In this document: positions 10,199 to 61,889 of the stretch, piece after piece
Position numbering within the stretch: position 1 is the first letter of the stretch
Layout of the letters: every line of letters starts with the position of its first letter
Origin: an uncultured Bacilli bacterium
GTDB taxonomy: Bacteria > Bacillota_I > Bacilli_A > RF39 > UBA660
NCBI GenBank assembly: GCA_947629815.1
Contig: CANRFG010000002.1
Span: 7,539 to 71,538, forward strand
DNA: 64,000 nucleotides
Direction of reading: 5' to 3'
Notes under the pieces: generated by a model
The model's database searches: none
Seen by the model: only the letters and a program-made list of their open reading frames with translations
What the model was told of the DNA's origin: nothing
Position numbers and translations under genes: made by a program

Positions 10199-10306
10199 AT
10201 TTATTTAAAAATTTATATTTTTTATATAAATCTGTAAAGTGGATATGATAAAAGTGTAAAGTTTTATACTTTTTTTTCATTTTTTTAAAATTATGCCCCA
10301 AACCAC

Positions 10307-10340
10307 TTGACAAATGTCATGGGGGGGGGGGCATAATATA
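10307..10340 (+). promoter_or_regulatory. promoter of pilin-like gene 1: -35 TTGACA (10307-10312), spacer containing an 11-nt poly-G tract (10321-10331), -10-like CATAAT/TAATAT (10332-10339)
   Basis: Seen directly. The spacer length is 19 nt to CATAAT or 21 nt to TAATAT, set entirely by the G-run length. Confidence 0.55.
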
Positions 10341-10367
10341 AGTAAATAATAGAAAAGAGGAAGTAAA

Positions 10368-11444
10368 TTGAGAAAAGGTTTTACATTAGTAGAATTGTTA
10401 GCGGTAATAGTGATACTTGCAATAATAGCGTTAATAACAGTACCAATAATAATGAATGTGGTTGAATCATCAAAAAAAGGAGCAGTTAAAGAAAGCCCGC
10501 AAGAATGGTTTATATTTGAAGATAATAGTGATGGGACAGCAACAATAACAGGAGTATCTGATGTATGGAAAAATTTAGAGGATGAAAATAAATATGATAT
10601 AGCAATCCCTTCAAAATCAACTAATGGAAATAGTGTAACAACAATAGGAGAATATGCATTTAATGGAAACAATCTCACAAGTATTGTTATTCCAAAAAGT
10701 GTCACAACAATAGGAGGCTATGCATTTGAATATAATAATCTCACAAATTTAGTAATTCCAGATAATGTTATAACAATAGAAGATGGTGCATTTGAATATA
10801 ATAATCTTGAAAGTTTAGATTTAGGAAATGGAGTTCAGGCAATTGAAGGGTTTGCATTTTCTTTTAATAAACTCACAGGAGAGTTAGTAATTCCAAATAG
10901 TGTCACAACAATAGGAGCAGGTGCATTTGCTGATAATTTATTAACGAATTTAACAATACCAAAAAGTGTCACAACAATAGGTCCAATGGCATTTAATACA
11001 AATTTATTACCAGATGAACAAGCATTTATTTATAAAAGAAATGAAGATGGTACAGAGGATAAAACAACAATAGTAAGTTATGGTGGTAGTAAAAAAGATA
11101 TAAATATACCTAATAACACTATAATAATTGGATTAGGCGCATTTATGGGTAATAATCTCACAAGTGTAATAATTCCAAATAGTATTACAACAATAGGAGA
11201 TTCTGCATTTGAAGGTAACAATCTAACAAATATAATAATACCTGAAAATATTATAACAATAGAATCATATGCTTTTCGTAAAGATGACTATTCAAATCTA
11301 AATTTAACAAAAATAATAAATAAAACAGGAAAAGAATTTGACTGGGATGCAATTATAAATGGTTCAATTGGTAAAAACTATACATTTGTAAAAGGAACAG
11401 TAGAAAGTGATTATGGAAATGTAGAAGTAACAGATACTGAATAA
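10368..11444 (+). CDS. modular type IV pilin-like protein: prepilin N-terminal cleavage/methylation domain fused to BspA-type leucine-rich repeats (LRR_5); TTG start
   Basis: N-terminus RKGFTLVELLAVIVILAIIALITVPII is a class III signal / N-methylation motif. About ten repeats of the form TIGxxAFxxNNLTxxxIP follow. RBS AGAGGAAG precedes the start. Confidence 0.8.
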   Translation: MRKGFTLVELLAVIVILAIIALITVPIIMNVVESSKKGAVKESPQEWFIFEDNSDGTATITGVSDVWKNLEDENKYDIAIPSKSTNGNSVTTIGEYAFNGNNLTSIVIPKSVTTIGGYAFEYNNLTNLVIPDNVITIEDGAFEYNNLESLDLGNGVQAIEGFAFSFNKLTGELVIPNSVTTIGAGAFADNLLTNLTIPKSVTTIGPMAFNTNLLPDEQAFIYKRNEDGTEDKTTIVSYGGSKKDINIPNNTIIIGLGAFMGNNLTSVIIPNSITTIGDSAFEGNNLTNIIIPENIITIESYAFRKDDYSNLNLTKIINKTGKEFDWDAIINGSIGKNYTFVKGTVESDYGNVEVTDTE

Positions 11445-11451
11445 AAGATAG

Positions 11452-11481
11452 ACTATTGATTTTTAAATCAATAGTTTTTAT
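11452..11481 (+). terminator. intrinsic terminator (ACTATTGAT-ttttaa-ATCAATAGT + T5)
   Basis: 9-bp perfect stem followed by a T-run after the pilin 1 stop. Confidence 0.65.
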
Positions 11482-11570
11482 ATTTTATATTAATTTATAA
11501 AAAAGTTTTAAAAATGTATTTCTATGTATAAAATATGATATAATTAAATAAATACAGAAGGAGGATTTTT

Positions 11571-12953
11571 ATGTATTGTGAACAATGTGGAGAAAAATTA
11601 GAAAAAGATGCAGTTTTTTGTTCTAATTGTGGTGCTAAAGTAAATAAAGAAGAAATAAAAGAAGAAACTAAGCAAGAAACTAAAGAAGAAATTATCGAAA
11701 CAAAGGAAGAACAAGAAGAAAGTAGCGAAATAGTTAAAGAAAATAATAAAAGAGAAGAAGATTCAGTTTTAACTGAAGAAAACAAAGAAACAAAAGAAGA
11801 AATAAAAGAAGATGTAAAACAAAATACAACATCTAAAGAAGTAAAAAATAAAAAAAGTAAGAAACCACTTATAATTACTTTGATATCTATAGTTGGCGCT
11901 GTCATATTATTTGTTTTAGGATATTTCTTATATCAATTTATTGATTTATCTTCACCAATTAAAGAAGATTGGGGTCAAAAATATTACACTTATTTAAAAT
12001 CAGCAGAAGAAGATAAAAATATAGATATAAAATTACCAGAAGATTTAAAAAATTCTAAAATTGGATTTTATGAAATAAAAGGTTTAAATGAACCTATTAT
12101 GATAATAACATATGAAAAACAAAACAACAATTATATGAATATATATTATATAAAAGATAATGAAGTAAAAGTAATTGATTTTAATAATCCTACAAGTATA
12201 CAATTTTTGTATAATATAGAAGAAGATAACTATGACTATTATACATACACACTAAATAACAATAATGAAACCTATAAAAAAATAATTGATGAAATAAATG
12301 GAAGTTCTAAAGATTATACATTTAATGATGAAGAAAAAGATAGTGTAATAGATGTAAATGGAAATGAAATATACATTTTAAAAATGGATAAAACATTCAT
12401 AAAATTAAATACTCAAAATAATACATTAGATTATAATAATAATTTAAAAATAAAAGAATTAAAAAATTTAATTATCGATACAATTAAACAATATGAACCA
12501 CAAGATAAACTTATAAATGATGACATTAAAAACAAAGTTGAAGAAGAAAAGAAAACAGTTAATTCTAAAATAGAAGAAATAAAGAAAGCAGAAGAAGAAG
12601 TAGAAAAGAAAAAAGAAGAAGAACTAAAAAAAGGATACCAAGTTGGAAATGCAACACTTGCTTATGGAACATATAAATTTGATGTTAGTGACTTTAAAGA
12701 CTTAGGATTTAAAGAAGATGATGAGGTTTTAATTCTTAATGTAGATAAAACTTGTCATTATACAAGAAAATCAAATGTAGGTCAACCTATTGATACTGAT
12801 TGTACTTTTGAAAGTGATGATATACTAAATTCATTTGAATTTCAAAAGGGAATAAGCTTATATGATAAAGATGGAAATTTAATATATGGATTTATGGTAT
12901 ATCAAAATAATAGTTTAAGTGACCAATGGCATGGATTAAAGTTTAAAAATTAA
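11571..12953 (+). CDS. zinc-ribbon (CxxC-x14-CxxC) / Lys-Glu-rich linker / single-TM / extracytoplasmic-domain protein, unknown function
   Basis: N-terminus MYCEQCGEKLEKDAVFCSNCGAKV (zinc ribbon). A charged EK-rich segment follows, then a TM helix (PLIITLISIVGAVILFVLGYFLY) and a 330-aa external domain. A strong RBS GGAGGA precedes the start. Confidence 0.7.
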   Translation: MYCEQCGEKLEKDAVFCSNCGAKVNKEEIKEETKQETKEEIIETKEEQEESSEIVKENNKREEDSVLTEENKETKEEIKEDVKQNTTSKEVKNKKSKKPLIITLISIVGAVILFVLGYFLYQFIDLSSPIKEDWGQKYYTYLKSAEEDKNIDIKLPEDLKNSKIGFYEIKGLNEPIMIITYEKQNNNYMNIYYIKDNEVKVIDFNNPTSIQFLYNIEEDNYDYYTYTLNNNNETYKKIIDEINGSSKDYTFNDEEKDSVIDVNGNEIYILKMDKTFIKLNTQNNTLDYNNNLKIKELKNLIIDTIKQYEPQDKLINDDIKNKVEEEKKTVNSKIEEIKKAEEEVEKKKEEELKKGYQVGNATLAYGTYKFDVSDFKDLGFKEDDEVLILNVDKTCHYTRKSNVGQPIDTDCTFESDDILNSFEFQKGISLYDKDGNLIYGFMVYQNNSLSDQWHGLKFKN

Positions 12954-12982
12954 TATCTAGTAAAAAACTAGATATTTTTTTA
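12953..12982 (+). terminator. intrinsic terminator (ATATCTAGT-aaaaa-ACTAGATAT + T7)
   Basis: Perfect 9-bp stem overlapping the stop codon, followed by a T7 run. Confidence 0.65.
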
Positions 12983-13095
12983 TAATCTGTAAAGTGTATA
13001 TAATAAAAGTGTAAAGTTTTAAAAAGTATGTTATTTAATGATTGACAAATGTTATATAACGATAAATAATATAGATAATAGGAAAGAGGAAGTAA

Positions 13096-14388
13096 ATGAA
13101 AAAAGGATTTACATTAGTAGAATTATTAGCAGTAATAGTAATACTTGCAATAATAGCATTAATAACAGTACCAATAATAATGAATATAGTAGAATCATCA
13201 AGAAAGAGTTCTGCAACAGCATCAGCATATGGATACATTGATGGAGTAAAAATAATGTATGCAAAAGAAATGTTATCTGGAAGTGATTTTACATTAGATG
13301 GAAAATTTAATGTAGATGCTGAAGGTAAATTAGATGGACATAATGTAGAAGTAGAAGGAACAAAAGCAAAAGGTGGATATTTAACATATAGTGATGGAAA
13401 AATAACAGAAGGATGTTTAACAATAGGAGATTATAAAGTAACAATAGAAAATGATACTGCAAAAGAAACTGTAAAAGGAGCATGTGATAGTTCTTCAAAT
13501 GGCGATGAATCAGGAACAAATGTAGTATTTAATGATGGAAGAGAGATATATTTTAATGTTGATACAGGAGAAGAATGTACAGTAGAAGATTATGAAGCAG
13601 CAGGAGGACTAGAAGTACAAAGTAAAACAGGTAATAAACAAGGTTGTATGAAATTTTATGCATTTTTAGATAGTGAAGATTCTGAAACAGTTAATTTGCT
13701 ATTAGACCATAATACAACTGCAGAGGTAAAATGGAATTCAAGTCTAAATAATACTGAAGGTCCAAGTACAGAAGATGGTCAATTGTTATCTCAGTTAAAT
13801 AAAGATACAGAAAATTGGCATGGAACAGAAATACCAAAGAACTATTTAGCATCATGGGAATATGATAATCAAACATATAATTATACAGTAGACTATAGCA
13901 AATATAAAGCTCGATTAATAACAACTGAAGAAATTGCTAAAATTGTAAAAAAAGAAGAAAAAAAACTTGAAGAATTATGTGATGATTCATGCATTGATAG
14001 CTATGGCACATTTGATATAACAAATGGTGAGTATTGTGATAGTTACATTTATGATGATTCGGCTTCTGAGGTTTATTGTGTATCTCCTAATTTTGCTACT
14101 GGAGGTAATTATAATGGTGGTATCGTAACTTATGGATGGTTGTTTGATAATTTATCAATTGGTTCTGCTAGTTGTATAATTTATGGTTGTAAAAATGGAC
14201 AAATTGATGATTCATATAATTATTGGACGGCATCTCCTTATGTTTGTGAGTCGTATGTATATGATAATATTATTTATTATTCATGGGTAGTGTCTTACGA
14301 TGGTACTGCTAATAACAATAATATTGGAGGACTCGCAGGTATTCGCCCTGTTATTGAGGTTTCGAAATCTAAATTGTCTAATAGTTAA
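13096..14388 (+). CDS. modular type IV pilin-like protein 2: the same prepilin N-terminus fused to a Cys-rich C-terminal module
   Basis: N-terminus KKGFTLVELLAVIVILAIIALITVPII is nearly identical to pilin-like gene 1 (the first ~110 nt are about 89% identical at nucleotide level). The C-terminal 150 aa contain many Cys residues (CDDSCIDSYG..CDSYIYDD..YCVSPNF..CIIYGCKNGQ). Confidence 0.8.
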   Translation: MKKGFTLVELLAVIVILAIIALITVPIIMNIVESSRKSSATASAYGYIDGVKIMYAKEMLSGSDFTLDGKFNVDAEGKLDGHNVEVEGTKAKGGYLTYSDGKITEGCLTIGDYKVTIENDTAKETVKGACDSSSNGDESGTNVVFNDGREIYFNVDTGEECTVEDYEAAGGLEVQSKTGNKQGCMKFYAFLDSEDSETVNLLLDHNTTAEVKWNSSLNNTEGPSTEDGQLLSQLNKDTENWHGTEIPKNYLASWEYDNQTYNYTVDYSKYKARLITTEEIAKIVKKEEKKLEELCDDSCIDSYGTFDITNGEYCDSYIYDDSASEVYCVSPNFATGGNYNGGIVTYGWLFDNLSIGSASCIIYGCKNGQIDDSYNYWTASPYVCESYVYDNIIYYSWVVSYDGTANNNNIGGLAGIRPVIEVSKSKLSNS

Positions 14389-14508
14389 TAAAAAAAAGGT
14401 TAATACGTTAAGTGTTAACTTTTTTTATTAATTTGTATGAAAATAAAATTTTTTTATAAAAAGGAAATTGAATTTATATATAGTATTTTAATAATGAGGA
14501 GGTGAAAC

Positions 14509-25526: not shown

Positions 25527-25558
25527 AACCATTGATTTTCAATGGTTTTTATTTTTTT
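25527..25558 (+). terminator. intrinsic terminator after tRNA-Glu (AACCATTGA-ttt-TCAATGGTT + T-run); second copy of the repeated module
   Basis: Same hairpin as at 17893-17924 with a one-base loop difference; followed by TTTTTATTTTTTTGGTCTTGTTT in both copies. Confidence 0.7.
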
Positions 25559-25690
25559 GGTCTTGTTTTTGGTCTTTTTTAATTAGTATTAAAAAAGATG
25601 TATTTAAATATTATTCTTTCATTTTCCTTGACTTTTTATTAATATGTGATAGAATAATTAACGCACTTAAAAAAAGGAGTTGAACTTTAA

Positions 25691-27489: not shown

Positions 27490-29439
27490 GATATGAAAGA
27501 AAAGATAAAAAAAATATTAAAAAATTATAGTTTATTATTGTTTATAATTATTTCTATGTTATATTTAGAAACTATTTTCCATATATTTTGTTTTAAAAAA
27601 TTTGATTTTTTAAATTTAATAAATATATATTTATTTACAATACCAATTTCAATAATTACATATTTTATATCAAGTTTATTTAATAAAAAAGCAAACAAAG
27701 TATTAACATTTATATTTACAATATTATATACTTTACTTTTTGTTTCACAATTTATTTATTTTAACTTATTTAACGCTATATATGGTCCAAATTCAATTGC
27801 TTTTGTAAATCAAGTATTAGTAGTATTGAATGAGGTTTTTGCCACTATATTACAAAATTGGTATGTAATATTATTGATGATTTTGCCTTTAATATTTTTA
27901 ATAGTATTTAATAATAAATTATATTTTGAATTTAATAAGAAAAAAAACATAATTATATCAATAATATACTTTATAATTTTTTATTTAGTAAGTATTTTAT
28001 CAATTAATATAAATAAAAACACTTTATATTGTAATTACAACTTATACTATAAAATAAAACAACCTGTTTTAACTTCAAACAATTTAGGGCTTACAACAAG
28101 TTTTAGATTAGAGGTACAAAGAGCAATATTTGGTTTTAAAGAACAAGCAATTATATCAAGTAATGAAAAATTAAATATAGATGAAAATAAAGAATACAAT
28201 ATGATGGATATAAATTTTGACTATCTTAATACTTTAACAAAAGATAATGATATTATGACTTTAAATAATTTCTTTCAAAATAGACAACCTACTGAAAAAA
28301 ACGAATATACAGGATTATTTAAAGATAAAAACTTAATATTTATTGTAGCAGAATCTTTAGATAAAAGTGTAATATCTAAAGATATAACTCCTACATTATA
28401 TAAATTATCAAAAGAAAGTATACAATTTAATAATTACTATGTTCCTTTATATCCTGGAAGTACAGGGGCTGGTGAATATATGACAGGTTGGGGGCTTTTA
28501 GCTTCTAATGTAGCAAAACTAGACCAACTTTCACAAACAATAGGTAACAACAATGAATTTAGATTAAATAATAGTCTTAAAAAATTAGGATATAAAACTC
28601 ATGCTTATCATGATTATTATGGATATTTTTATCATAGAGATGAATATTTTAAAAACGATAATTACGATGATTATTCATTCTGTGATACAGGTTTGGTATC
28701 ATCATGTGAAGAATTCAGAGGTAGCGATTTAGAAATGATTCAAAATAGTATTAAAAACTATATAAATGATGATAAATTCTTCACATATTATTTAACTGTT
28801 AGTGGGCATGGTAGTTATAGTTATAATGAAAGTTCAATAATAAGAAAAAATTATGACAAAGTTAAAAATCTAAGTTATTCAGATGATATTAAAGGTTTGT
28901 TAGCATCAAATATTGAGTTAGATAAGGCATTGGAATATTTAGTTAAAACTTTAGAAGAAAACAACTTACTAGATGATACAGTAATAGTTATAACACCTGA
29001 CCATTATCCTTACTATTTAAAACCAAATCAATTTAATGAATTAGATAGTGAAGATAGAACAGATAAGTTTTTATTACATCATCAAAATTTAATCATTTGG
29101 AATAATGATAATTCTAATATAGCTACTGATAAATATATTTCTAATATAGATATATTACCAACTATTTTAAATTTATTTGGAATTGAATATGATTCTAGAT
29201 TATTTATAGGAAGAGATGCTTTATCAAATTCACCATCAACTGTTATTCTTTCAGACCAAAGTTGGATAAATGAATATGGTAGTTATGATACAGTAGAAGA
29301 TAGTTTCAAAGAAAAGAAACCTGTTGATAGTAATTATGTTGAAAGTATGAATCAAACAATCAATACTTATTTTAGTATTTCTAATATGATTCAAGAAAAA
29401 AAATATTATAATTTCATATTTGAAAACATAAAAGTGTAA
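27490..29439 (+). CDS. LTA-synthase family protein (N-terminal polytopic membrane domain plus extracellular sulfatase-like domain)
   Basis: Five TM helices followed by a sulfatase-fold domain (LIFIVAESLD, VITPDHYPYY). The ATG at 27490 has RBS AGGTGTG. Confidence 0.75.
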   Translation, partial: DMKEKIKKILKNYSLLLFIIISMLYLETIFHIFCFKKFDFLNLINIYLFTIPISIITYFISSLFNKKANKVLTFIFTILYTLLFVSQFIYFNLFNAIYGPNSIAFVNQVLVVLNEVFATILQNWYVILLMILPLIFLIVFNNKLYFEFNKKKNIIISIIYFIIFYLVSILSININKNTLYCNYNLYYKIKQPVLTSNNLGLTTSFRLEVQRAIFGFKEQAIISSNEKLNIDENKEYNMMDINFDYLNTLTKDNDIMTLNNFFQNRQPTEKNEYTGLFKDKNLIFIVAESLDKSVISKDITPTLYKLSKESIQFNNYYVPLYPGSTGAGEYMTGWGLLASNVAKLDQLSQTIGNNNEFRLNNSLKKLGYKTHAYHDYYGYFYHRDEYFKNDNYDDYSFCDTGLVSSCEEFRGSDLEMIQNSIKNYINDDKFFTYYLTVSGHGSYSYNESSIIRKNYDKVKNLSYSDDIKGLLASNIELDKALEYLVKTLEENNLLDDTVIVITPDHYPYYLKPNQFNELDSEDRTDKFLLHHQNLIIWNNDNSNIATDKYISNIDILPTILNLFGIEYDSRLFIGRDALSNSPSTVILSDQSWINEYGSYDTVEDSFKEKKPVDSNYVESMNQTINTYFSISNMIQEKKYYNFIFENIKV

Positions 29440-29502
29440 ACTAAATATTATTTTTTATAAATTTATAGACTTTTAATATTTAGTATGTTATAATTAAATT
29501 GC

Positions 29503-29671
29503 CTAAAGATAAGAAATCGTCTGTTAAGAAAAACCTACAAATAAACGATTGGGAATCTAATTTATATGTGGTGTTGAATACCTTTTTATAAGGAATCCTA
29601 AAGCCTATAATGTGATGCCCACCTGGTAGACAGGGTTTATCGTTTCGGACGCCTACATCCTTAGGCTTTTT
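29503..29671 (+). ncRNA. candidate structured small RNA (6S/SsrS-like?), 5-prime and 3-prime ends paired in a long-range closing helix, ending in a hairpin and T6 run
   Basis: GC-enriched 170-nt ORF-free segment. The 5-prime GCCTAAaGATaagaaatCGTC pairs with the 3-prime GACGcctacATCcTTAGGC. The T6 run is followed by an independent TTGATT-17-TATAAT promoter for tcdA. Confidence 0.3.
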
Positions 29672-29718: not shown

Positions 29719-30402
29719 ATGATAGAACAGTTCGAAAGATTAGAACTTCTTGTTGGACAAACTAAGTTAAAAAAAATATTTGATACAACTGTACTTGTTA
29801 TTGGTCTTGGTGGAGTTGGAAGCTATGCTGTTGAAGCATTAGTTCGTTCTGGTATTAAAAAGATTATATTAGTTGATTCAGATAAAATAGATATAACTAA
29901 TTTAAATAGGCAACTTATGACTAACTATAATAATATTGGAAAATATAAAGCAGAGGCCTTAAAAGAAAGAATAAAAACCATTAATAAATATATTGATGTT
30001 GAATGTATAAATGAATTTATTTCAAATGATAATATAGATAAATTATTTGATAGAAAAATTGATTATGTAATTGATGCTTGTGATACAGTAAATACTAAAA
30101 AAGAAATAATTAGAAAATGTGTTAAAAATAAAATTAAATTTATTTCAAGTATGGGCGTTGGAAATAAAATGAATTCTTCTAGATTAAAAATAGTTGATAT
30201 TAGAAAAACGAGTTATGACCCAATATCAAAAATAATTAGAAAAATGATAAAAGATGAAAAAATAAATAGTAAAGTCCCTGTTGTATTTAGTGATGAAATA
30301 CCTATTAAAGTAAAAGAAAAGATTGGTTCAAATTCATTTGTTCCTGCAACAGCAGGATTATTATGCGCAAGTTATGTAATAAATGATATTGTAAAGGATT
30401 GA
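29719..30402 (+). CDS. tcdA: tRNA threonylcarbamoyladenosine dehydratase TcdA (ThiF/MoeB E1-like fold)
   Basis: Rossmann GLGGVGS motif with NLNRQ; 227-aa TcdA/YrvM-type. Confidence 0.75.
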   Translation: MIEQFERLELLVGQTKLKKIFDTTVLVIGLGGVGSYAVEALVRSGIKKIILVDSDKIDITNLNRQLMTNYNNIGKYKAEALKERIKTINKYIDVECINEFISNDNIDKLFDRKIDYVIDACDTVNTKKEIIRKCVKNKIKFISSMGVGNKMNSSRLKIVDIRKTSYDPISKIIRKMIKDEKINSKVPVVFSDEIPIKVKEKIGSNSFVPATAGLLCASYVINDIVKD

Positions 30403-30406
30403 TAGT

Positions 30407-30943
30407 ATGAAACAAGATTTATACAATATAGCTAAATGTATAAGTGGTAGAGTTTTACTTATTGGTATAGAAGATGCAAATATTTTTGATATTATTAATT
30501 CTAATGATAAAATTTTAATTTGTGATTCATTAAATAATTTTAAATCTAAAAAAATGTATTGTGATAGTACTACTAAGTCTAATTCTAAAGTTATAAAAGT
30601 TAAAAAATTAAGAAAAGTTTTTAAAAAAAAGAATGTTGATTTTATTATTTGTAATATTTTGGAAATGAAAAAACATATGAAATCATTTTTAAGTGATAGT
30701 ATATATATAAATAGTAATATGCTTTATATTTATGGAAATGAAAATGATTTTGATTCTGAAGAATTAATAAGTAAATATAAACGATATTGTAATGATATAA
30801 AAATAGAAAAATTTGATGATAATTTTATTATATATATTGATAATAAAAATACAAAAACAAATAAAGTCAAAGATAAATTTTATTATGTAATTGATACTAT
30901 TTCTAATATTAGAAATATAATTGCTGATATTATAATGGGGTGA
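30407..30943 (+). CDS. hypothetical protein (178 aa)
   Basis: ORF tightly packed between tcdA and the third pilin-like gene; no recognisable domain. Confidence 0.5.
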   Translation: MKQDLYNIAKCISGRVLLIGIEDANIFDIINSNDKILICDSLNNFKSKKMYCDSTTKSNSKVIKVKKLRKVFKKKNVDFIICNILEMKKHMKSFLSDSIYINSNMLYIYGNENDFDSEELISKYKRYCNDIKIEKFDDNFIIYIDNKNTKTNKVKDKFYYVIDTISNIRNIIADIIMG

Positions 30944-30948
30944 ATTAA

Positions 30949-31824
30949 ATGAGAGAAAAAGGTTTTACATTAATTGAACTTGTTTGCGTTATATTGTTGC
31001 TGGCTATAATTATTTCTTTATCTACAATAGCTATTGTTAATGTTGTTCAAAACAGCAAAGAAAGAGAAAATAAAGCTTCTATGGAACTTATAAAGACTGC
31101 AGTAAATGATTATATTGATAAATATGAGAATGATTTTCATATAGAAAATGGTGTTACATATTGTATTGATGTACAGGATTTAATAGATGAAAATTTACTT
31201 ATTTCAAATATTAGTTATGATGGAGAAAAAATAAACGAAAAAACTGTAAAAACAGAATATAACAATAATAATTATTCTTATAAACTAGATGATAAAGAAA
31301 CTTGTATGATTTCTGAAACTAAAAAATATGAAATTACTAATTTAGTTTCAAATGGTAGTTTTGAAAATGGAACAACAGATTGGTCAGGAGATGTAATGAC
31401 AATATCAGATGATACCTCATCTAGTGGTACAAAAAGTTTGTATATTAAAGATATAGATGAAAATCATAATTTTTGGTATACACAAACTATTAACAATATA
31501 TCTGTAGGTGATAAAATATACTATACCTTAAAGTCAAAAGTTTTAAACGGAAGATTTAATATTATTTTGGATGATGATAATGGTACTTCTTTACCAGCTA
31601 GGGAATCATCTGAATTTGTTAAAATTTCTAGTATTTATAGTTCAAAACATGATACCTTTAATGTTCAAGTAGGGTCATCCTATGCTGTTATTGGAGAGGG
31701 ATATATAGATGATGTTATAATTATAAATTTAACAGAAACATTTGGCGCAGGAAATGAACCTTCTAAAGATTGGTGTGATGAACACATAAATTATTTTGAT
31801 GGAACTACGGTTATTTATAAATAA
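30949..31824 (+). CDS. modular type IV pilin-like protein 3: prepilin N-terminus plus a CBM4/9/22-like carbohydrate-binding-type C-terminal module
   Basis: N-terminus REKGFTLIELVCVILLLAIIISL is a prepilin methylation motif. The C-terminal NGSFENGTTDWSG motif is characteristic of CBM_4_9-type beta-sandwich modules. Confidence 0.7.
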   Translation: MREKGFTLIELVCVILLLAIIISLSTIAIVNVVQNSKERENKASMELIKTAVNDYIDKYENDFHIENGVTYCIDVQDLIDENLLISNISYDGEKINEKTVKTEYNNNNYSYKLDDKETCMISETKKYEITNLVSNGSFENGTTDWSGDVMTISDDTSSSGTKSLYIKDIDENHNFWYTQTINNISVGDKIYYTLKSKVLNGRFNIILDDDNGTSLPARESSEFVKISSIYSSKHDTFNVQVGSSYAVIGEGYIDDVIIINLTETFGAGNEPSKDWCDEHINYFDGTTVIYK

Positions 31825-33838: not shown

Positions 33839-34240
33839 TTAATTGATAATATAACTTTTTTCAATATATTTTTGTATTTTATTTTCACTTATAGGATAAA
33901 TAGTGGCAACATAATTATCCTTGTTCTTTTGCAAATTCAATTTAACAACAACGCATACATTTTCCTCTATTTTTTTAAAATAAAGTAAAGAATTTTTACA
34001 TTTATCATAATAAACAAAAAGTGGATTATTTATTATATTTTCAATGTTAGTTATTGCTTTATTATAATTATCTACGCTTGAAAATTCAGAAATGTGTTTT
34101 GTTATGTGTAAGTATAAATCTAATGATTGAACAATTGTTGTGTTTTTATAATCATATAATTTATATTTATCAATTATGTCATTTGAAATTACACCAACAA
34201 TTTTTTTTATTTGCTTTTTGCTCATATTAATCACCACCAT
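33839..34240 (-). CDS. hypothetical protein (133 aa)
   Basis: ORF with RBS GGTGGTGA, preceded by a 230-nt structured leader. Confidence 0.5.
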   Translation of the reverse strand: MVVINMSKKQIKKIVGVISNDIIDKYKLYDYKNTTIVQSLDLYLHITKHISEFSSVDNYNKAITNIENIINNPLFVYYDKCKNSLLYFKKIEENVCVVVKLNLQKNKDNYVATIYPISENKIQKYIEKSYIIN

Positions 34241-34245
34241 AAAAA

Positions 34246-34475
34246 AATAACCTCCAATCTAAAAATTAAATTGGAGGATTTGAACAAATTTAAGTAGTCT
34301 CCCAGTCCTACATGTATTCTTTCGGCTACGCCTACTCAAACCAAAATAAATTGGCGTTAGTGCAAGAAGAAAATTTACACCCTTTAAATTTGAACAATGT
34401 TATTTTAATACATAAACAACAAAAACTTTGTCAAAAATTGCTCGACAATAAGAATATATCATATTTTTTATTACT
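34246..34475 (-). promoter_or_regulatory. candidate cis-regulatory leader/attenuator: promoter TTGACA-17-TATATT (about 34470-34442, minus strand), 200-nt GC-enriched leader, and terminator hairpin CCTCCAAT-N11-ATTGGAGG + T7 ending 18 nt before the start codon
   Basis: The only promoter for the 33839..34240 gene lies upstream of a strong intrinsic terminator, so expression requires regulated read-through. One hairpin arm is a CCTCC anti-SD-like sequence. Confidence 0.4.
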
Positions 34476-34512
34476 TGTCAAATCTTATTTTATATAAATT
34501 ATATAATTTTAA

Positions 34513-40191: not shown

Positions 40192-40307
40192 ATATAATTT
40201 TTTTAGAAATGATGCATATAATGTATTAAAAGTAAATAGTTTTTATTAAAAAAAATAAAAAACTTTTCAAATTTGACAAAAAAGTGTAAATTTGATATAC
40301 TTGATAT

Positions 40308-40933
40308 ATATTGATTGGCACATTATTCTAGTCAATATGATTTATTAGGAAGACGGGGCTAAAAATCCGTTAAAGAGCATATCTGTGAAACTTTTGGTGT
40401 TTGCTTCTTACGCCCAGTTTGGGGTGAATGCTGGAAGGTAGAGTTATGGGCGCACATAATGGCATATGTTTCCGACCCATTCCTCATGGAGACCTAATCT
40501 TGTGGTAAGCATATACACATACCGTTGACTTGACTTACTACGACTTAGGCTTGAACCTACTTTGTGGCGAAAGTTATGAGTAGTGTAGCTTGTCTTGAGT
40601 GGATATTTGGAACGAATGAACAATTTTAAGTAATTTATAGCTAAGATTATTTAAAAATCGCATTCTGAAATTATGTCTGCAAAAAAGAATTATTAATAAA
40701 TCAGTTGGGGAGGAAATCTCCTAGAGTGTCATTGATATAGGATTGCAGTGTGTACTAAGTGGCAATCGAGTAATATAATAGGTAACTATATATCTGCTTT
40801 TTTAAAGGGGAACCGCAAGTATGGTAACATCTTGTAAGAGCAGGGGAAATCCAACTCGACCTAAGACACAAAGTTAACTATATTAATAGCCAGACAAGAG
40901 TTTTAAAGGGGGAAATTACCCTTTTTATTTTTT
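40308..40933 (+). ncRNA. large structured noncoding RNA, about 625 nt; candidate OLE (ornate large extremophilic) RNA
   Basis: ORF-free on both strands and markedly GC-enriched against a 22-25% GC background. It has its own promoter (TTGACA-17-TATACT at 40273-40301) and intrinsic terminator (AAAGGG-N8-CCCTTT + T-run at 40905-40933). The size matches OLE. A small polytopic membrane protein follows immediately, and nusB-xseA-xseB lie adjacent, which is the conserved OLE/oapA neighbourhood. Confidence 0.45.
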
Positions 40934-48991: not shown

Positions 48992-49060
48992 ATATACTAT
49001 CACTTTACACTTGACATTTGACTATTAAGTGTTAAAATGATAATAGGAGGTTTTAATAAC

Positions 49061-49957: not shown

Positions 49958-50098
49958 ATGAAAAAGAATAAAGATTTAAAAGCTAGAAGCAATGCACAAA
50001 GCAATGCTAAATCAAATGCTAGAACTACATCATCAAATGCTAATGCAAATTCATCTATGAATAGTTCAATGAACGATAATTCATATGATTGCAAATAA
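49958..50098 (+). CDS. possible 46-aa hydrophilic Asn/Ser/Ala-rich small protein (MKKNKDLKARSNAQSNAKSNARTTSSNANANSSMNSSMNDNSYDCK)
   Basis: RBS GGGTGA before the ATG. Composition resembles minor small acid-soluble spore proteins. Not in the ORF track (below its length cutoff). Confidence 0.35.
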   Translation: MKKNKDLKARSNAQSNAKSNARTTSSNANANSSMNSSMNDNSYDCK

Positions 50099-53348: not shown

Positions 53349-54251
53349 CTAATTTCCACCATGTGGGTGAAATGAATCATAATTTTCTTTTAATTTTTTA
53401 TTAGAAACATGTGTGTATATTTGTGTTGTTGAAATATTGGAGTGTCCTAGCATTTCTTGTATGCTTCTTAAATCAGCGCCACCATTTAGTAAATGTGTTG
53501 CGAAAGAATGTCTTAATGTATGTGGTGAAAAAGATGTTTCTATATTCTTTTCTTTAGCGATTGTTTTAAGTATTTTAAAAAATCCTTGTCTAGTCATTTT
53601 TTTGCCATGATTATTTAAAAATAAGTAATCATTATTTTCTTTTTTTATTAATAAATTTCTATACTCTTTTATATAAATATCTAAATAATATAAAGTGTAA
53701 TCTCCAAGTGGTATTATTCTTTCTTTAGAGCCTTTTCCAATTGTTCTTACAATACAATTTTCTAAATCTAAATCAGTTACTTTTAAATTAACGAGTTCAC
53801 TTACTCTAAGTCCTGTTCCATACATTAATTCTATCATTGCTTTATTTCTATAACTAAATTTATCTTTTAAATCAATATCTAATAGTTTTAAAACTTCTTC
53901 TTCACTTAATACTTTTGGAAGTGTTTTAGTTAATTTAGGAAGTTCCAAATCAAGTGATGGATTATTTTTAATATACTTTTCTATTATTAAAAACTTATAA
54001 AATGACCTTATAACAGATATGGAATGAGCAATTGATTTTTCTGTCAATTCATTTTTTTTCAAATATTTTAAATATTCTTTTATATCAGATGAATTTACTT
54101 CTTTTAAATAAATTTTTTGCTCTTTTAAATAGTCATAATATTTTTTTAGTTCCATTGTATATGAATCAACTGTATTGTTACTATACTTTTTATCTATTAA
54201 TAAATAGTTTTTATATTCTTCTATTTTATTAGTAAATTCTATATCATTCAT
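53349..54251 (-). CDS. tyrosine site-specific recombinase, XerC/XerD family
   Basis: Catalytic R..HxxR..Y region (LRHSFATHLLNGGADLRSIQEMLGHSNISTTQIYTHV). No flanking repeats or mobile-element cargo. Confidence 0.85.
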   Translation of the reverse strand: MNDIEFTNKIEEYKNYLLIDKKYSNNTVDSYTMELKKYYDYLKEQKIYLKEVNSSDIKEYLKYLKKNELTEKSIAHSISVIRSFYKFLIIEKYIKNNPSLDLELPKLTKTLPKVLSEEEVLKLLDIDLKDKFSYRNKAMIELMYGTGLRVSELVNLKVTDLDLENCIVRTIGKGSKERIIPLGDYTLYYLDIYIKEYRNLLIKKENNDYLFLNNHGKKMTRQGFFKILKTIAKEKNIETSFSPHTLRHSFATHLLNGGADLRSIQEMLGHSNISTTQIYTHVSNKKLKENYDSFHPHGGN

Positions 54252-54393: not shown

Positions 54394-55605
54394 ATGAATG
54401 AACCTTTAGCTATTAAATTAAGACCAAAAAAAGTAAAAGATGTAATTGGTCAAGAACATTTAATTGGAAAAGATAAAATAATAACAAATATAGTAAATAA
54501 TAAAAAATTATTTTCGATGATTTTTTATGGTAAACCAGGTGTTGGTAAAACAACACTTGCTCTTGCTATTACAAATGAACTTGGTTTTAAATATAGAATG
54601 CTTAATGCTGTTGTTAACGCTAAAAAGGATTTTGATGTTGTTATTGAAGAAGCAAAAATGTATGGTAATATTGTCTTAGTTTTAGATGAAATTCATAGAT
54701 TAAACAAAGATAAACAAGATATTTTACTTCCTTATTTAGAAAATGGTGTTATAACACTTATTGGTATGACTACTTCAAATCCTTATCATAGTATTAATCC
54801 TGCTATAAGAAGTAGATGTCAAATATTTGAACTTAAAGAACTTACTAATGAACATGTAGTTATAGGAATTAAAAGAGCCATAAAAAGTGAATTTTTACCT
54901 AATATAAAAATAGATAAAAAAAGTATTGATTACATCGCCTCATTATCTAATGGAGATTTAAGATTTGCTTATAATTTACTTGAAATGGCTTACTACTCTA
55001 CTAGTGATTTTAATATAAATTTAGATGTTTTAAAAAATATAAATAGTAAACCTGCTTTTTTTCATGATAAAAACGAAGATGGTTATTATGATGTAATAAG
55101 TGCTTTTCAAAAATCTATTCGTGGAAGTGATGTTAATGCTTCTCTTTATTATTTAGCAAGATTAATAGAAGCAGGAGATTTAGATATAATATTTAGAAGG
55201 ATGAGCGTTATTGCATATGAAGATATTGGGCTTGCTAATAGTTCTATGGGACCTAAAGTAGATGCTTGTATAAATGCATGCAATCGTCTTGGACTTCCTG
55301 AGGCTAGAATTCCTTTAGCAGCAACTGTAATAGAACTTGCTTTATCTCCTAAATCTAATAGTGCTTGTATGGCAATAGATGATGCTTTAAATGTTGTTAG
55401 AAGTGGTAATAGTGGTAATGTACCTGATAATATTAAAACTACTTCTCCTGATTATTTATATCCACATAATTATAAAGGTAGTTGGGTAAAACAACAATAC
55501 TTACCTGATAAAATTAAAAATATTAAATTTTATGTACCAAAAAATAACAAATATGAAAATATGTTAAAAGAAGTAATCGATAAGATAGAAAGAAATAGTA
55601 AATAG
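54394..55605 (+). CDS. rarA: replication-associated recombination protein A (MgsA/RarA AAA+ ATPase)
   Basis: Walker A GKPGVGKTT, Walker B LVLDEIHR, and the RarA C-terminal helical domain. Confidence 0.88.
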   Translation: MNEPLAIKLRPKKVKDVIGQEHLIGKDKIITNIVNNKKLFSMIFYGKPGVGKTTLALAITNELGFKYRMLNAVVNAKKDFDVVIEEAKMYGNIVLVLDEIHRLNKDKQDILLPYLENGVITLIGMTTSNPYHSINPAIRSRCQIFELKELTNEHVVIGIKRAIKSEFLPNIKIDKKSIDYIASLSNGDLRFAYNLLEMAYYSTSDFNINLDVLKNINSKPAFFHDKNEDGYYDVISAFQKSIRGSDVNASLYYLARLIEAGDLDIIFRRMSVIAYEDIGLANSSMGPKVDACINACNRLGLPEARIPLAATVIELALSPKSNSACMAIDDALNVVRSGNSGNVPDNIKTTSPDYLYPHNYKGSWVKQQYLPDKIKNIKFYVPKNNKYENMLKEVIDKIERNSK

Positions 55606-55618
55606 AAAGAGGTATTAT

Positions 55619-57241
55619 ATGGAAAAAATATATATATTTGGTCATAGAAATCCAGATACTGATAGTGTTTGTTCTTCAATAGCGTTATCTTATTTAAAAA
55701 ATAAATTAGGAATGAATACAGTACCTGTTATATTAAGTGATATAAACAATGAAACTAAATTTGTTCTTGACTATTTTAATATTAAAAAACCAATGTTTTT
55801 AAATGATGTTAAATTAAAAATTAAAGATACTGATTATAGAAAAAATCATTTTATAAATGCTTATGAATCAGTATATGCTGGATATAAAAAAATGGTAGAA
55901 TCAGGTACTAGTAAAATACCAATTGTAGATGATAATCAAAGATTTTTAAGCGTTCTTTCAATGAAAAATATAGCGACAGACCAAATCGAAGGAAATACAC
56001 AAATACTTACAACTTCATATGATAATATTATAAATACTATAAGTGGAGAATCTTTATTAAAATTTGATAATAAAATACATGGGGAATTAATGATTGCAGG
56101 ATATAAAAGTACTACATTTATTGAAAATATCAAACTTAATAGTGATACTATATTAATTGTTGGAGATAGACATTCAATTATAGAATATGCAGTAAATCAA
56201 AAAGTTAAATTAATTATTTTAACAGGAAACGCAAATATAAAAGAAGAACATTATAATATTGCGCTTAAAAATAATGTAAATATTATAAGAACTTATCATT
56301 CTACTTTTGAAGTCGCAAAAATGATTAATTTATGTAATTATATTTATAAAATATCTACTACTAAAGATGTACTTTGTGTTAACGAAGATATGCCCATAGA
56401 TGAATTTACAAAACTTGCTAATCAAACTAAATTTAGTTATTATCCTGTTATAAGTAAAAATGAAAAATGTCTTGGTATAGTTAGATTATCTGATGTTGGA
56501 TATACTAAAAAGAAAAAAATTATTTTAGTTGACCATAATACAGCAAGACAAAGTGTAGAAGGAATAGAAGAAGCAGAAATTATTGAGATAATTGACCATC
56601 ATAATTTAGGTAATCTTGGTACTTCTAAGCCTATTAATTTTAGAAATATGCCTGTTGGTAGTACTTGTACAATTATATATTTGTTGTTTAAGGAAAATAA
56701 TATTGAAATACCTCCTCATATTGCAGGGTTGTTAATTAGTGGTATATGTTCAGATACAATTATTTTAAAGTCCCCTACTACTACTGATATTGATAGAAAA
56801 GCTATAAATGAATTATCTTATATTGCTTCCATTAATTATAATGAATATGCACTTGAAATGTTTAAAAAAGGTTCTTCATTTATAGGAAAAACTAAACAAG
56901 AAATTTTATATACAGATTTTAAAAATTACCCTATTGATAATAATAAAATTGGTATTTCACAAGTACTTACTACAAATCCTAGTGAAATATTAGATGAAAA
57001 AGATGAATTTATAAATGAAATGAATAATATCAAAAAATCTGGCGAATATTATTTAATTACTATGCTTGTTACTGATATATTAAATAATAATTCTTATATT
57101 TTATATACAGATGGTTGTGATGATATTATTAAAAAAACATTTAATTTAAAAGAAATATATGAAGGAAAATTATTAGAAAATATTGTTTCAAGAAAGTTAC
57201 AAGTTGTACCACAATTATTAGATAATTTAGAAAAAAAATAA
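55619..57241 (+). CDS. CBS-domain-containing family II inorganic pyrophosphatase (DHH-CBS-CBS-DHHA2)
   Basis: DHH motif IFGHRNPDTDSVCS, central CBS pair, DHHA2 motif (DHHN..G). Confidence 0.82.
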   Translation: MEKIYIFGHRNPDTDSVCSSIALSYLKNKLGMNTVPVILSDINNETKFVLDYFNIKKPMFLNDVKLKIKDTDYRKNHFINAYESVYAGYKKMVESGTSKIPIVDDNQRFLSVLSMKNIATDQIEGNTQILTTSYDNIINTISGESLLKFDNKIHGELMIAGYKSTTFIENIKLNSDTILIVGDRHSIIEYAVNQKVKLIILTGNANIKEEHYNIALKNNVNIIRTYHSTFEVAKMINLCNYIYKISTTKDVLCVNEDMPIDEFTKLANQTKFSYYPVISKNEKCLGIVRLSDVGYTKKKKIILVDHNTARQSVEGIEEAEIIEIIDHHNLGNLGTSKPINFRNMPVGSTCTIIYLLFKENNIEIPPHIAGLLISGICSDTIILKSPTTTDIDRKAINELSYIASINYNEYALEMFKKGSSFIGKTKQEILYTDFKNYPIDNNKIGISQVLTTNPSEILDEKDEFINEMNNIKKSGEYYLITMLVTDILNNNSYILYTDGCDDIIKKTFNLKEIYEGKLLENIVSRKLQVVPQLLDNLEKK

Positions 57242-57258: not shown

Positions 57259-57819
57259 TTATATTAAAACATATTGTTTTGAATGATGATGTTTTACTTC
57301 ACTTAATCCTAAATTTTTTATAAGTTTATTATTTAATTCTTGCATTTCAATAGCTATTTTAAGAGAATTTAAGTCTACTTCTATTAAACCTGTATAATTT
57401 AATTTATATAATAAAATATATAAATTATTTATAGTAGTTTTATAAGAAGCACATCTTTTACCAATTATAAATTCAAGTTGTTTTAATTCCTCATATTCTA
57501 TTGTTCCATCAGGGTTTATATATATTTCAACATCTTTACTTATTTTAGTAGTACCTCTTTTAAATGAGAATTTCAATTTATAAGTATATGTACTATTTTC
57601 AAATACATTATAATATGCTCCACTAGAAATATTATAAAGCCATGAATTTTTAGGTGAATGTTCAATTTCAAATTCATTTAAACTACTCATTTTATTTTGA
57701 GTTAACTCATTTTCTTCATAAATTTTATCAATTTCTTTTGGATTAAGTTTAGATAATTCTAATAAATTAAATAATTCATAATTATATTTTGCAATTAATT
57801 GTTCTTCAAAACCTTCCAT
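57259..57819 (-). CDS. hypothetical protein (186 aa)
   Basis: ORF only. Confidence 0.45.
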   Translation of the reverse strand: MEGFEEQLIAKYNYELFNLLELSKLNPKEIDKIYEENELTQNKMSSLNEFEIEHSPKNSWLYNISSGAYYNVFENSTYTYKLKFSFKRGTTKISKDVEIYINPDGTIEYEELKQLEFIIGKRCASYKTTINNLYILLYKLNYTGLIEVDLNSLKIAIEMQELNNKLIKNLGLSEVKHHHSKQYVLI

Positions 57820-59788: not shown

Positions 59789-61240
59789 TCAATCTTGATT
59801 CTTTTTTCTAATATTTTTTTTATTTTTACTTACAATTTCCTCATTTTTTATTTTTTTAGGTAATTCAAAATAGAAAACAGTTCCCTCTTTATTTTTAGAT
59901 TCAACTCCATAATTACAATTATGATTTATAAATATATTTTTTACAATAGAAAGACCAACTCCACTACCAACATGAACTCTTGAATGTGTTTTATCTACTT
60001 TATAATATTTGTCCCATATATTTTTGATTTCTTCTTCATCTATTCCATTTCCTGTATCTTTTACTTCTATTCTAAAATTATCTTCTTTTTCAATAACATT
60101 TATTATTACTTTTTTATCTTCTCCTGTATAATTTATAGCATTATTAATTAAATTATAAAGTGCTTGCTCAATTCTTTTTTTATCAGCGCATACTATAGAA
60201 TTATCAAGTAAATTTAATTCAAAGTTATATCCATCATTTTCTACCATGATGTCATATCTTTTTACTATACTTTTTATTAAATCATTTATATCAAATTGTT
60301 CTATATTTAATTTTTGAGTTCCAGATTGTATTTTTGATAAGTCTAAAATATCATTTACAAGTACATTTAATCTATCTGTTTCTTCTATTATAATATTTAA
60401 ATCTTTTTGCATTTTTTCTTTATCTTTATATGTTACATCTCTAACCATTTCTGCATATGCTTTTATCATTGTAAGTGGTGTTTTTAAATCATGACTTACA
60501 TTTGCAAGTAATTCTCTTCTCAACTCTTCTGTTTTTGATAGTTCATTTTTAGTGTATTCAAGTGTTTGAGCAAGTTCGTTTAATTCCAAAATAGATTCGT
60601 TTGTATCGAATTTAGCGTTGAAATCTCCTTGTGATAATTTTTTAGCTTCATTATTTATTTTAATAACTCCACTTGATATTTTTTTAGAAACAAAATAAGA
60701 AACTATCAATGATAAGATTATAACTAATAAAGTTACATAAAAAAATTGGTTTTTTAATACTGTTATAGTTGTATCAATTGGTTCAATAGATGCACTTATA
60801 AATGCGTAGTTAGTTTCATCTAATTTTATACCATAAATAATACTTTTATTTTTAAATCTTGGATTAACTAAAGTATATATTTTTTTAGATAAATTACTAT
60901 TTATAAAATCTTTCTTATAAAAAGAGCCATCTTTACTTGTTTCTCCTCCCATACAACCTTTATCATATAATACAGATAAATATTTTGTTGTATCATTGTT
61001 TATTATTTCTATACAAACTTCATTTTCCATTGAAATTTTATCTAATATATCTTCATAATTATTACTTTGAAAACTTGATAACATTTTTTCAACAGAATTT
61101 TCTAACTTATTTACTACGAAATTTTTATAATAAGATTTTAAAAATAATATTTGAAATATCCATAAAAATAATAATATTGAAGCAGAAAAAATTATAAAAT
61201 ATATCCATATTTTAGTTCTTAAATTACTTTTTTGTTTCAT
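59789..61240 (-). CDS. sensor histidine kinase (2 TM, HAMP, HisKA, HATPase_c)
   Basis: H-box SHDLKTPLT and N/G1/G2 boxes (NLINNAINYT, DTGNGI, GSGVGLSIV). Confidence 0.88.
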   Translation of the reverse strand: MKQKSNLRTKIWIYFIIFSASILLFLWIFQILFLKSYYKNFVVNKLENSVEKMLSSFQSNNYEDILDKISMENEVCIEIINNDTTKYLSVLYDKGCMGGETSKDGSFYKKDFINSNLSKKIYTLVNPRFKNKSIIYGIKLDETNYAFISASIEPIDTTITVLKNQFFYVTLLVIILSLIVSYFVSKKISSGVIKINNEAKKLSQGDFNAKFDTNESILELNELAQTLEYTKNELSKTEELRRELLANVSHDLKTPLTMIKAYAEMVRDVTYKDKEKMQKDLNIIIEETDRLNVLVNDILDLSKIQSGTQKLNIEQFDINDLIKSIVKRYDIMVENDGYNFELNLLDNSIVCADKKRIEQALYNLINNAINYTGEDKKVIINVIEKEDNFRIEVKDTGNGIDEEEIKNIWDKYYKVDKTHSRVHVGSGVGLSIVKNIFINHNCNYGVESKNKEGTVFYFELPKKIKNEEIVSKNKKNIRKKNQD

Positions 61241-61889
61241 TATATTTATATCCTACTCCTCTTACTGTAACAATTAAATTTCTATATTTTCCTAAATTAT
61301 TTCTAAGCATTTTTATATGTGTATCTATTGTTCTATCATCGCCAAAAAAATTATATCCCCAAATTTTTGTTAAAAGTTGTTCTCTAGAAAGAGCAATTCC
61401 TTTATTTTCAATAAAATATACTAAAAGTTCATATTCTTTTGGTGTCAATTTTACTTCTTTATTTTTTATAGTTACTACTCTTCCTGCATAGTCGATTTTT
61501 AAATCTTCATATGTATATACATCTTCAATATTTTTAACTCTTTTAAGTATTGCTTTTATTCTTGCCATCAATTCTTTAGGACTAAATGGTTTTGTTAAAT
61601 AATCATCTATTCCTAAATCAAATCCTGCTAATTTATCAAATTCTTCACTTCGTGCAGACAAAACAATAGTAGGAATGTTTTTTATTTTTTTTATTTCTTT
61701 AAATGCACTGAAACCATCTAATTTAGGCATCATTATATCGAGTACCATTAAATCTATATCGTTATTTTTTATTTTTTCTATTGCATCTAATCCATTTTCT
61801 GATTCTATTACCTCAAAATTTTCTAGTATACAATATTCTTTAATTACATTTCTTATTAATTCTTCATCATCTACTATAAGTATTTTCAT
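61224..61889 (-). CDS. OmpR/PhoB-family response regulator
   Basis: Receiver domain (MKILIVDDEE, DLMVLDIMMPKLDG) and winged-helix output domain (RTIDTHIKMLRNNLG). Confidence 0.9.
   Translation of the reverse strand: MKILIVDDEELIRNVIKEYCILENFEVIESENGLDAIEKIKNNDIDLMVLDIMMPKLDGFSAFKEIKKIKNIPTIVLSARSEEFDKLAGFDLGIDDYLTKPFSPKELMARIKAILKRVKNIEDVYTYEDLKIDYAGRVVTIKNKEVKLTPKEYELLVYFIENKGIALSREQLLTKIWGYNFFGDDRTIDTHIKMLRNNLGKYRNLIVTVRGVGYKYNETKK

Follow-up and report, generated by a model that had tools for sequence, protein, structure and literature searches.

Near-identical blocks upstream of two modular type IV pilin-like genes of an uncultured Bacilli bacterium are copies of one promoter module

The window studied here is a 64-kb stretch of DNA from an uncultured Bacilli bacterium (contig CANRFG010000002.1) with 23% G+C, 90% of which is coding DNA. 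It harbours two genes for modular type IV pilin-like proteins, pil1 and pil2, each preceded by a block of 37 nt that is nearly identical in both places. A sequence-only reading of the window took this repeat for the binding site of a regulator shared with further promoters. We find that the two blocks are copies by descent of a single promoter module and that the pair is no evidence of a regulon. As an explanation of the whole we favour, with a little more than even confidence, one duplicated 5' pilin module of which the promoter-distal part of the block is likely functional.

The pilin genes form an island with ftsW on its 5' side and comEA and comEC on its 3' side. All island features given in this and the next paragraph are on the plus strand. 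The first gene, pil1 (10368-11444), encodes a protein of 358 amino acids (aa) with an N_methyl signal and BspA-type leucine-rich repeats (LRR_5, E = 1e-49). Its core promoter (10307-10339) consists of TTGACA (10307-10312), a tract of 11 G (10321-10331) and CATAAT/TAATAT (10332-10339). Between pil1 and pil2 lies the gene of a zinc-ribbon membrane protein (11571-12953, 460 aa), which accompanies the pilin module in this and in the sister species. The second gene, pil2 (13096-14388, 430 aa), combines N_methyl, a pilin module and a weakly DUF6273-like C-terminus, with 290 residues past the pilin module, and its core promoter (TTGACA-17-AATAAT, 13042-13070) agrees with the consensus at 11/12 positions. 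The prepilin motif models PF07963 and TIGR02532 are matched by pil1, pil2 and one more gene of the window (30949-31824). This third modular pilin-like gene (N_methyl, 291 aa) is part of an apparent operon (29719-31824) together with a ThiF-family gene and a gene for a 178-aa protein of no known kind.

The block upstream of pil1 (ATCTGTAAAGTGGATATGATAAAAGTGTAAAGTTTTA, 10230-10266) and the one upstream of pil2 (ATCTGTAAAGTGTATATAATAAAAGTGTAAAGTTTTA, 12985-13021) are identical at 35/37 positions. Each contains two copies of the box TGTAAAGT with starts 22 nt apart, namely a distal box (10233-10240 for pil1, 12988-12995 for pil2) and a proximal box (10255-10262 and 13010-13017, respectively). Both blocks are located 5' of the TTGACA -35 element (10307-10312; 13042-13047) of a sigma-A-type promoter and of a pilin-like gene. 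The two-box pattern TGTAAAGTG-N12-GTGTAAAG has exactly two matches in the window, which are the two pilin blocks, and a pattern search with up to 3 mismatches finds no further copy there. That is, the near-identical repeat described by the sequence-only reading exists, while its spacer is N12 rather than N13 (the N13 form has 0 matches in the window) and the block coordinates given there were off by 2-4 nt. Its assignment to both pilin paralogs holds for pil1 and pil2; the third N_methyl pilin-like gene (30949-31824) in the window has no TGTAAAGT box. An alternative promoter within the block (TTTATA-17-TATGAT, 9/12) was rejected, being weak and found for pil1 only.

The similarity of the two genes' 5' parts is not restricted to the blocks. 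Homology extends from about 10206 to 10477 for pil1 and from 12961 to 13205 for pil2 in the form of conserved patches, which besides the block comprise the -35 region (11/11), the region of the ribosome-binding site (21/23) and the first 112 coding nt (90%). The two 37-nt blocks are the promoter-distal ends of a 5' module of about 250-270 nt that heads both modular type IV pilin genes. The module begins with the block and continues through the -35 region TTGACAAATGT and the ribosome-binding site into the coding sequence, of which it includes about 36 codons for the class III signal peptide and the alpha-1 helix. It was duplicated within the hypervariable island between ftsW and comEA, and this duplication, not a convergence of several unrelated promoters on one operator, is why the blocks are alike. 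It follows for motif statistics that paralogous copies should not be counted as independent occurrences.

To relate the locus to other genomes, we used a graded series of relatives derived from FtsW homologues. Contigs of the same species show identical blocks in the same layout. In a second strain (L122, zinc-ribbon protein 97% identical), the terminator of the zinc-ribbon gene runs directly into comEA (junction at L122 1500-1590) and pil2 is missing. The segment absent there has a length of 1,474 nt and starts exactly at the block, which is hence the first sequence of the pil2 segment. It is flanked in the window by a 12-nt direct repeat ATTTTTTTATAA (12974-12985 and 14448-14459, plus strand), and the native comEA upstream sequence resumes after the right-hand copy. 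An origin of the pair in a duplication of the pilin 5' region had been named by the sequence-only reading itself as the observation that would speak against a shared site, and such a duplication is what the comparison reveals, with pil2 as a strain-variable indel of 1.47 kb beginning at the block.

The sister species (L108, FtsW 88% identical) has a single pilin gene after ftsW. There, the 12-nt distal box AATCTGTAAAGT is identical at 12/12 positions and lies 53 nt before TTGACA, compared to 54 nt for pil2 and 74 nt for pil1, where the difference of 20 nt corresponds to about two helical turns. At the position of the proximal box, the sister species reads TTATTTTT with 2/8 matching positions. 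The full two-box element thus occurs in one species only, and the sister species has half of it. Five more distant relatives (FtsW 78-83% identical) differ in what comes after ftsW, which is comEA itself, an unrelated gene or a gene for a nucleoside phosphorylase. The relative with 79% identity has a pilin-like gene 3' of comEC with a TTGACA promoter and no box.

The site 3' of ftsW is hypervariable in the genus (window 10199-14508; L108, L111, L117, L118-L121, L205, L206). Its contents are either pilin and zinc-ribbon gene (in part with pil2), one pilin and zinc-ribbon gene, an unrelated gene, comEA or the nucleoside phosphorylase gene. The pilin of the sister species (L108 11285-12163, 292 aa) is a mosaic: over residues 1-138 it matches the pil2 pilin module with 66% identity, and its C-terminal part aligns with the end of the LRR protein pil1. 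Judged from these alignments, the mosaic suggests domain shuffling among the pilin genes. Distant homologues of the zinc-ribbon protein have no pilin neighbours. Searching with the pilin N-terminus gave nothing but short, generic fragments of pilins, and the contig index searched does not contain the exact pil2 protein. The region upstream of comEA contains a AAAAGGAA(A)T box in all relatives examined (window 14455-14470; L108 13700-13720; L111 11198-11212; L122 1526-1540), which could be the sigma-H-like -35 element of a competence promoter; the pilin promoters are without it.

We also searched public collections for the element. Within 185,579 species-representative genomes of GTDB, the exact two-box pattern is found at 104 loci with 125 instances, and none of them (0/125) is followed by a pilin N-terminus. 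The matches in low-GC genomes that we read (L040, L061) are located inside coding regions. Many of the genome matches are accounted for by iteron-like arrays of GTGTAAAGTG. Such tandem arrays with a 22-nt period occur in unrelated bacteria, i.e., in a gammaproteobacterial metagenome-assembled genome, in Marivita and other Rhodobacteraceae and in Bacteroidales (L070 60-200; L002 4068-4125; L016 2490-2545), where the Bacteroidales arrays have two direct copies and one inverted copy. In appearance, these arrays resemble iterons or some other conserved element. In the metagenome collection, the two-box pattern with its native flanks has 0 matches, and the distal box combined with the -35 element has 82 matches, none of them before a pilin.

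Next to its origin, we considered whether the block is constrained. The part most likely to be functional would be AATCTGTAAAGT, an upstream site at about -86 of pil2 and -108 of pil1 relative to the predicted transcription starts. A putative DNA-binding protein would act there and modulate the sigma-A-type promoter of the adhesin-like pilins, and the promoter-proximal box would be an addition specific to this species. Two comparisons point to constraint. First, the blocks diverge at 2/37 positions while the synonymous sites of codons 2-36 diverge at 7/25.8 (pS = 0.27; Fisher P = 0.026). Second, 4-fold sites of ftsW differ at 0.405 between the two species, such that the 12/12 identity of AATCTGTAAAGT in all three promoters is unexpected under neutrality (0.595^12, i.e., about 0.002, a post hoc figure). 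The DNA between block and -35 element was furthermore replaced or expanded in pil1, with the block and TTGACAAATGT kept. The distal box may thus be a private upstream operator, as far as such conservation can tell. That the two pilin promoters have a cis-regulatory site in common, as claimed by the sequence-only reading, is weakly favoured by the 2/37 divergence and by the distal box kept in the sister species, and the claim extends in our data neither to the HTH (helix-turn-helix) gene nor to the RNA promoter discussed below.

Several observations weigh against a functional distal box. The comparison of block and synonymous sites rests on small samples. Of the 7 synonymous differences, 5 have G in pil1 where pil2 has A, which is a hint that the pil1 copy had an unusual history and did not follow a neutral clock. 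Between the species, the N-terminal cassette has diverged uncommonly little even at its synonymous sites (about 3 differences in 36 codons, counted by hand from the alignment). The conserved distal box could hence be due to a recent exchange of the 5' cassette, with no selection involved. Outside of three pil1-specific block replacements or insertions, the alignable intergenic parts are about as similar as the block. Finally, the pil2 promoter with its 11/12 positions is near consensus, unlike the usual activator-dependent promoter.

A serious, if unlikely, rival is that the block has no function of its own and is just where a segment starts that was duplicated or converted recently, its internal 8-nt repeat being a by-product of AT-rich intergenic DNA of low complexity. 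In its favour, pil2 is a strain-level indel bounded by microhomology, the alignable intergenic parts are all about 90-95% identical, and a near-consensus pil2 promoter needs no activator. The sister species lacks the proximal box, and the next relative lacks both. Moreover, short-range direct repeats are commoner in the intergenic DNA of the window than in shuffled sequence, and several other intergenic regions carry such 8-nt repeats (16 matches at about 7 loci vs. 1.9 expected). Short-range repeats in intergenic DNA also include TTTTTGGTCTT, present twice with a period of 12 nt, and ATGTTTCTT, present twice with a period of 24 nt (25554-25580 and 63706-63740). What a neutral relic does not readily account for is a distal box identical at 12/12 positions across species at 40% neutral divergence, together with a kept distance to the -35 element (53, 54 and 74 nt, with 74 = 54 + 20). 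The same holds for a block that is less diverged than the neighbouring synonymous sites (P = 0.026) and that was retained, like the -35 element, when the sequence in between was replaced or expanded. We stay with the duplicated module that has a likely functional distal box.

A more far-reaching version of the duplicated module involves the G tract in the pil1 promoter. The 11-G homopolymer (10321-10331) lies between the -35 and -10 elements and results in a spacer of 19 nt if CATAAT is the -10 element and of 21 nt if it is TAATAT. The pil1 -35 element is bracketed by a 10-nt inverted repeat (ATTATGCCCC, 10290-10299, and GGGGCATAAT, 10328-10337). The length of the tract is 10 G in L105 and 11 G in L106, L107 and the window, where the contigs have about 3x coverage and homopolymer sequencing error is possible. 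The tract is a candidate slipped-strand phase switch. In the extended version, the distal box and the species-specific second box would serve as operator for a regulator restricted to this lineage, which would turn on the tip-adhesin (modular pilin) genes, with the poly-G spacer switch acting in addition on pil1. We consider this combination improbable. If it were true, an uncultured gut bacillus would pick its displayed type IV filament adhesin in two layers, one regulated and one stochastic, from within a strain-variable cassette island beside comEA/comEC.

Among known types of regulator sites, the arrangement of the boxes resembles that of LytTR-type (AgrA/ComE-like) activators, which bind imperfect 9-nt direct repeats that are 12-13 bp apart and upstream of the -35 element (PMC5600425). 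The block would then be such a site, formed by two 9-nt direct repeats with a 12-13-nt gap, and the respective response regulator would be encoded outside the window. The block repeats CTGTAAAGTG and GTGTAAAGTT with their 22-nt period do match the AgrA architecture (PMC5600425), and the proximal box region AAAGTTTTA fits 7/9 positions of the AgrA consensus when read by eye. We nevertheless regard a LytTR site as very unlikely. The distal box misfits [TA][AC][CA]GTTN[AG][TG], and the proximal repeat does not adjoin the -35 element but ends 24 nt (pil2) or 44 nt (pil1) before it. The -35 element is the consensus TTGACA and not a weak one, and the sister species has not kept the two repeats as a pair. 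Domain scans and the sister-species annotation reveal no LytTR domain in the open reading frames (ORFs) of 100 aa or more in the window, i.e., in all of them except 54394-55605, 55619-57241 and 57259-57819. Among the window ORFs examined, no other obvious partner regulator is found.

Slightly less credible still is the explanation given by the sequence-only reading, i.e., that GTGTAAAGTG is the operator of the HTH protein encoded at 49061 or of the OmpR-type regulator (61224-61889), and that it controls the pilins, the HTH gene and OLE RNA. It was built on four or five copies of the box that are all associated with promoters. The pilin blocks are counted twice in this, as they stem from the one duplication, and the question is whether the remaining copies exceed chance.

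The copy at the HTH gene is a single box AAGTGTAAAGTG on the minus strand that is present as claimed and overlaps the -35 element (TTGACA 49011-49016) by 2 nt, where the plus strand reads CACTTTA/CACTTGA; its location is 49001-49012 instead of 49008-49019, i.e., 7 nt away. We judge it a chance-level match. As a single extra full box it has P ~0.4 for the 10-mer and ~0.09 for the 11-mer AAGTGTAAAGT, with 0.09-0.55 copies expected. The copy in the promoter of the large non-coding RNA (AAGTGTAAATTT, 40282-40293, plus strand) is also present, in the spacer between TTGACA (40274-40279) and TATACT (40296-40301). It is a mismatched copy with 2 mismatches to the 12-mer of the sequence-only reading, which had counted one, and 1 mismatch to the 9-mer GTGTAAAGT, and the G of AAAG is gone. 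This 9-mer is not enriched in the window when one mismatch is allowed (12 found vs. 18.9 expected). The RNA itself (40299-40909) is OLE RNA (Rfam RF01071, 391 bits, full length).

For the degenerate box STGTAAAGTK, we observe 5 matches in the window vs. 0.55 expected, of which 4 belong to the two duplicated blocks. TGTAAAG heptamers outside the pilin blocks are mostly found in coding DNA of the window (6/7). The excess over chance is restricted to the duplicated pair. In addition, the box reads CACTTTACA in reverse complement and then differs by one mismatch from the -35 context CACTTGACA of pil1 and the HTH gene, so that promoter-like DNA yields near-copies of the box. This likeness to -35 DNA probably explains the weaker versions near promoters, and we infer that the boxes at the HTH-gene and OLE RNA promoters are chance-level resemblances.

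What speaks for a regulon is the exact 11-mer AAGTGTAAAGT at the HTH promoter with 0.09 copies expected, the presence of an OmpR-type regulator and its kinase in the window, and 6 window copies of AAGTGTAAA vs. 2.0 expected. Yet two of these six are the pilin duplicates, one extends across the stop codon of a sulfatase-family gene (29432-29440) and one is in promoter-less intergenic DNA. The extra boxes are single and not paired, and they are inconsistent in position and orientation, as the HTH copy has the inverse orientation and adjoins the -35 element while the OLE copy is found in the spacer. The box is missing at the third pilin-like gene, and there is no enrichment at one mismatch. XRE-type HTH proteins normally read inverted repeats and not direct repeats, which counts against the HTH protein as the reader of the block. 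The 11-nt period of OmpR-family dimer sites, which are head-to-tail repeats (PMC6222199), differs from the 22 nt of the block. The WalR form TGTWAH-N5-TGTWAH (PMC9210968) has 0 matches in the window vs. 2.2 expected, and at +11 the block reads TATGAT or TATAAT. The proposed regulators are without support. The OmpR-type regulator (61224-61889) scores below every NCBIfam equivalog cut-off and is a generic family member, and the HTH protein has no family or solved-structure match beyond a weak HTH_3. As further candidates for the box, we considered an alternative-sigma -10, a CcpA/LacI-type half-site, a ComK box and a Spo0A box and rejected them, with the partner half-site or core bases missing.

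Least probable of all is that the block is the recombinase-recognised 5' end of a mobile pilin cassette, with cassettes inserted or exchanged behind terminators: both the pil2 indel and, in two species, the pilin module after ftsW do start with the block, the genus shows hypervariability at this locus, the mosaic pilin of the sister species combines pil2-like and pil1-like parts and the window encodes a tyrosine recombinase (53349-54251), but the junctions are 12-nt T-run microhomologies that fit illegitimate or slipped recombination and not a defined core site, neither module has a copy of the block at its right-hand end, the recombinase resembles housekeeping enzymes of the XerC/D type, and tyrosine-recombinase sites typically have inverted arms where the block has direct repeats.

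Three further features of the window were observed. In the 310-nt gap after the HTH gene, a small ORF (49958-50098) with its own ribosome-binding site encodes 46 aa that are rich in Asn, Ser and Ala with repeated SNA motifs, and its DNA shows direct repeats with 12- and 21-nt period. A long leader (34241-34512, minus strand) upstream of a gene of the PBECR3-nuclease family (33839-34240) contains a terminator-like hairpin (CCTCCAAT...ATTGGAGG) with a T run behind it and matches no Rfam family at threshold. A 6S RNA is located at 29497-29671.

A regulon comprising pilins, a regulator and OLE RNA would have been a useful handle on an uncultured gut Firmicute; the data give it no support. What remains is a case of adhesin-type modular pilin diversification, with a shared 5' promoter and signal module and mosaic C-terminal domains, with whole genes gained and lost from strain to strain at the ftsW-comEA hot spot, and with a candidate homopolymer switch. 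It is of local interest for the annotation of such genomes and opens no major question. The finding itself is ordinary, and the poly-G tract of pil1 is the more interesting and more testable lead.

Finally, we compare the element and its genes with known systems. With OmpR/PhoB-family sites, the block has head-to-tail direct repeats in common and its hexamer TGTAAA fits TGTWAH (PMC9210968), while it differs by its 22-nt period, by TATGAT/TATAAT as the +11 hexamer and by a window without canonical WalR box. LytTR-family sites (AgrA, ComE, PlnC/D) have the same layout, i.e., two direct repeats of about 9 nt on the same strand with a gap of 12-13 nt upstream of the -35 element (PMC5600425), although the block is off consensus, 24-44 nt away from the -35 element of a strong core promoter and not kept as a pair in the sister species. 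Iterons share the 22-nt period, as seen for the 3-6 tandem GTGTAAAGTG units of unrelated genomes, but here only two boxes are present, the 14 nt between them are not repeated and there is no replicon context.

On the level of the locus, a likeness exists to the vlp family of Mycoplasma hyorhinis, in which paralogous, phase-variable surface-protein genes have conserved 5' cassettes. The pil paralogues also share promoter, ribosome-binding site and signal-peptide region and diverge completely downstream, one copy has a spacer homopolymer whose length may differ between samples, and the locus is strain-variable. In contrast to vlp, there are only two pil copies, their signal is a type IV prepilin (class III) signal and not that of a lipoprotein, and switching is here a candidate.

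For the genes rather than the DNA element, the closest relation is to modular type IV pilins such as PilB/PilC of Streptococcus sanguinis, an architecture that is widespread (PMC8179133). No genes of the pilus machinery are encoded in the window and pil1 appears to be without a globular pilin module, which sets the locus apart from these pilins. As in the Streptococcus proteins, on the other hand, an N-terminal prepilin motif and alpha-1 helix are followed by a grafted module (PMC8179133), which is the BspA LRR domain in pil1 and the pilin module plus a C-terminal domain of no known kind in pil2.

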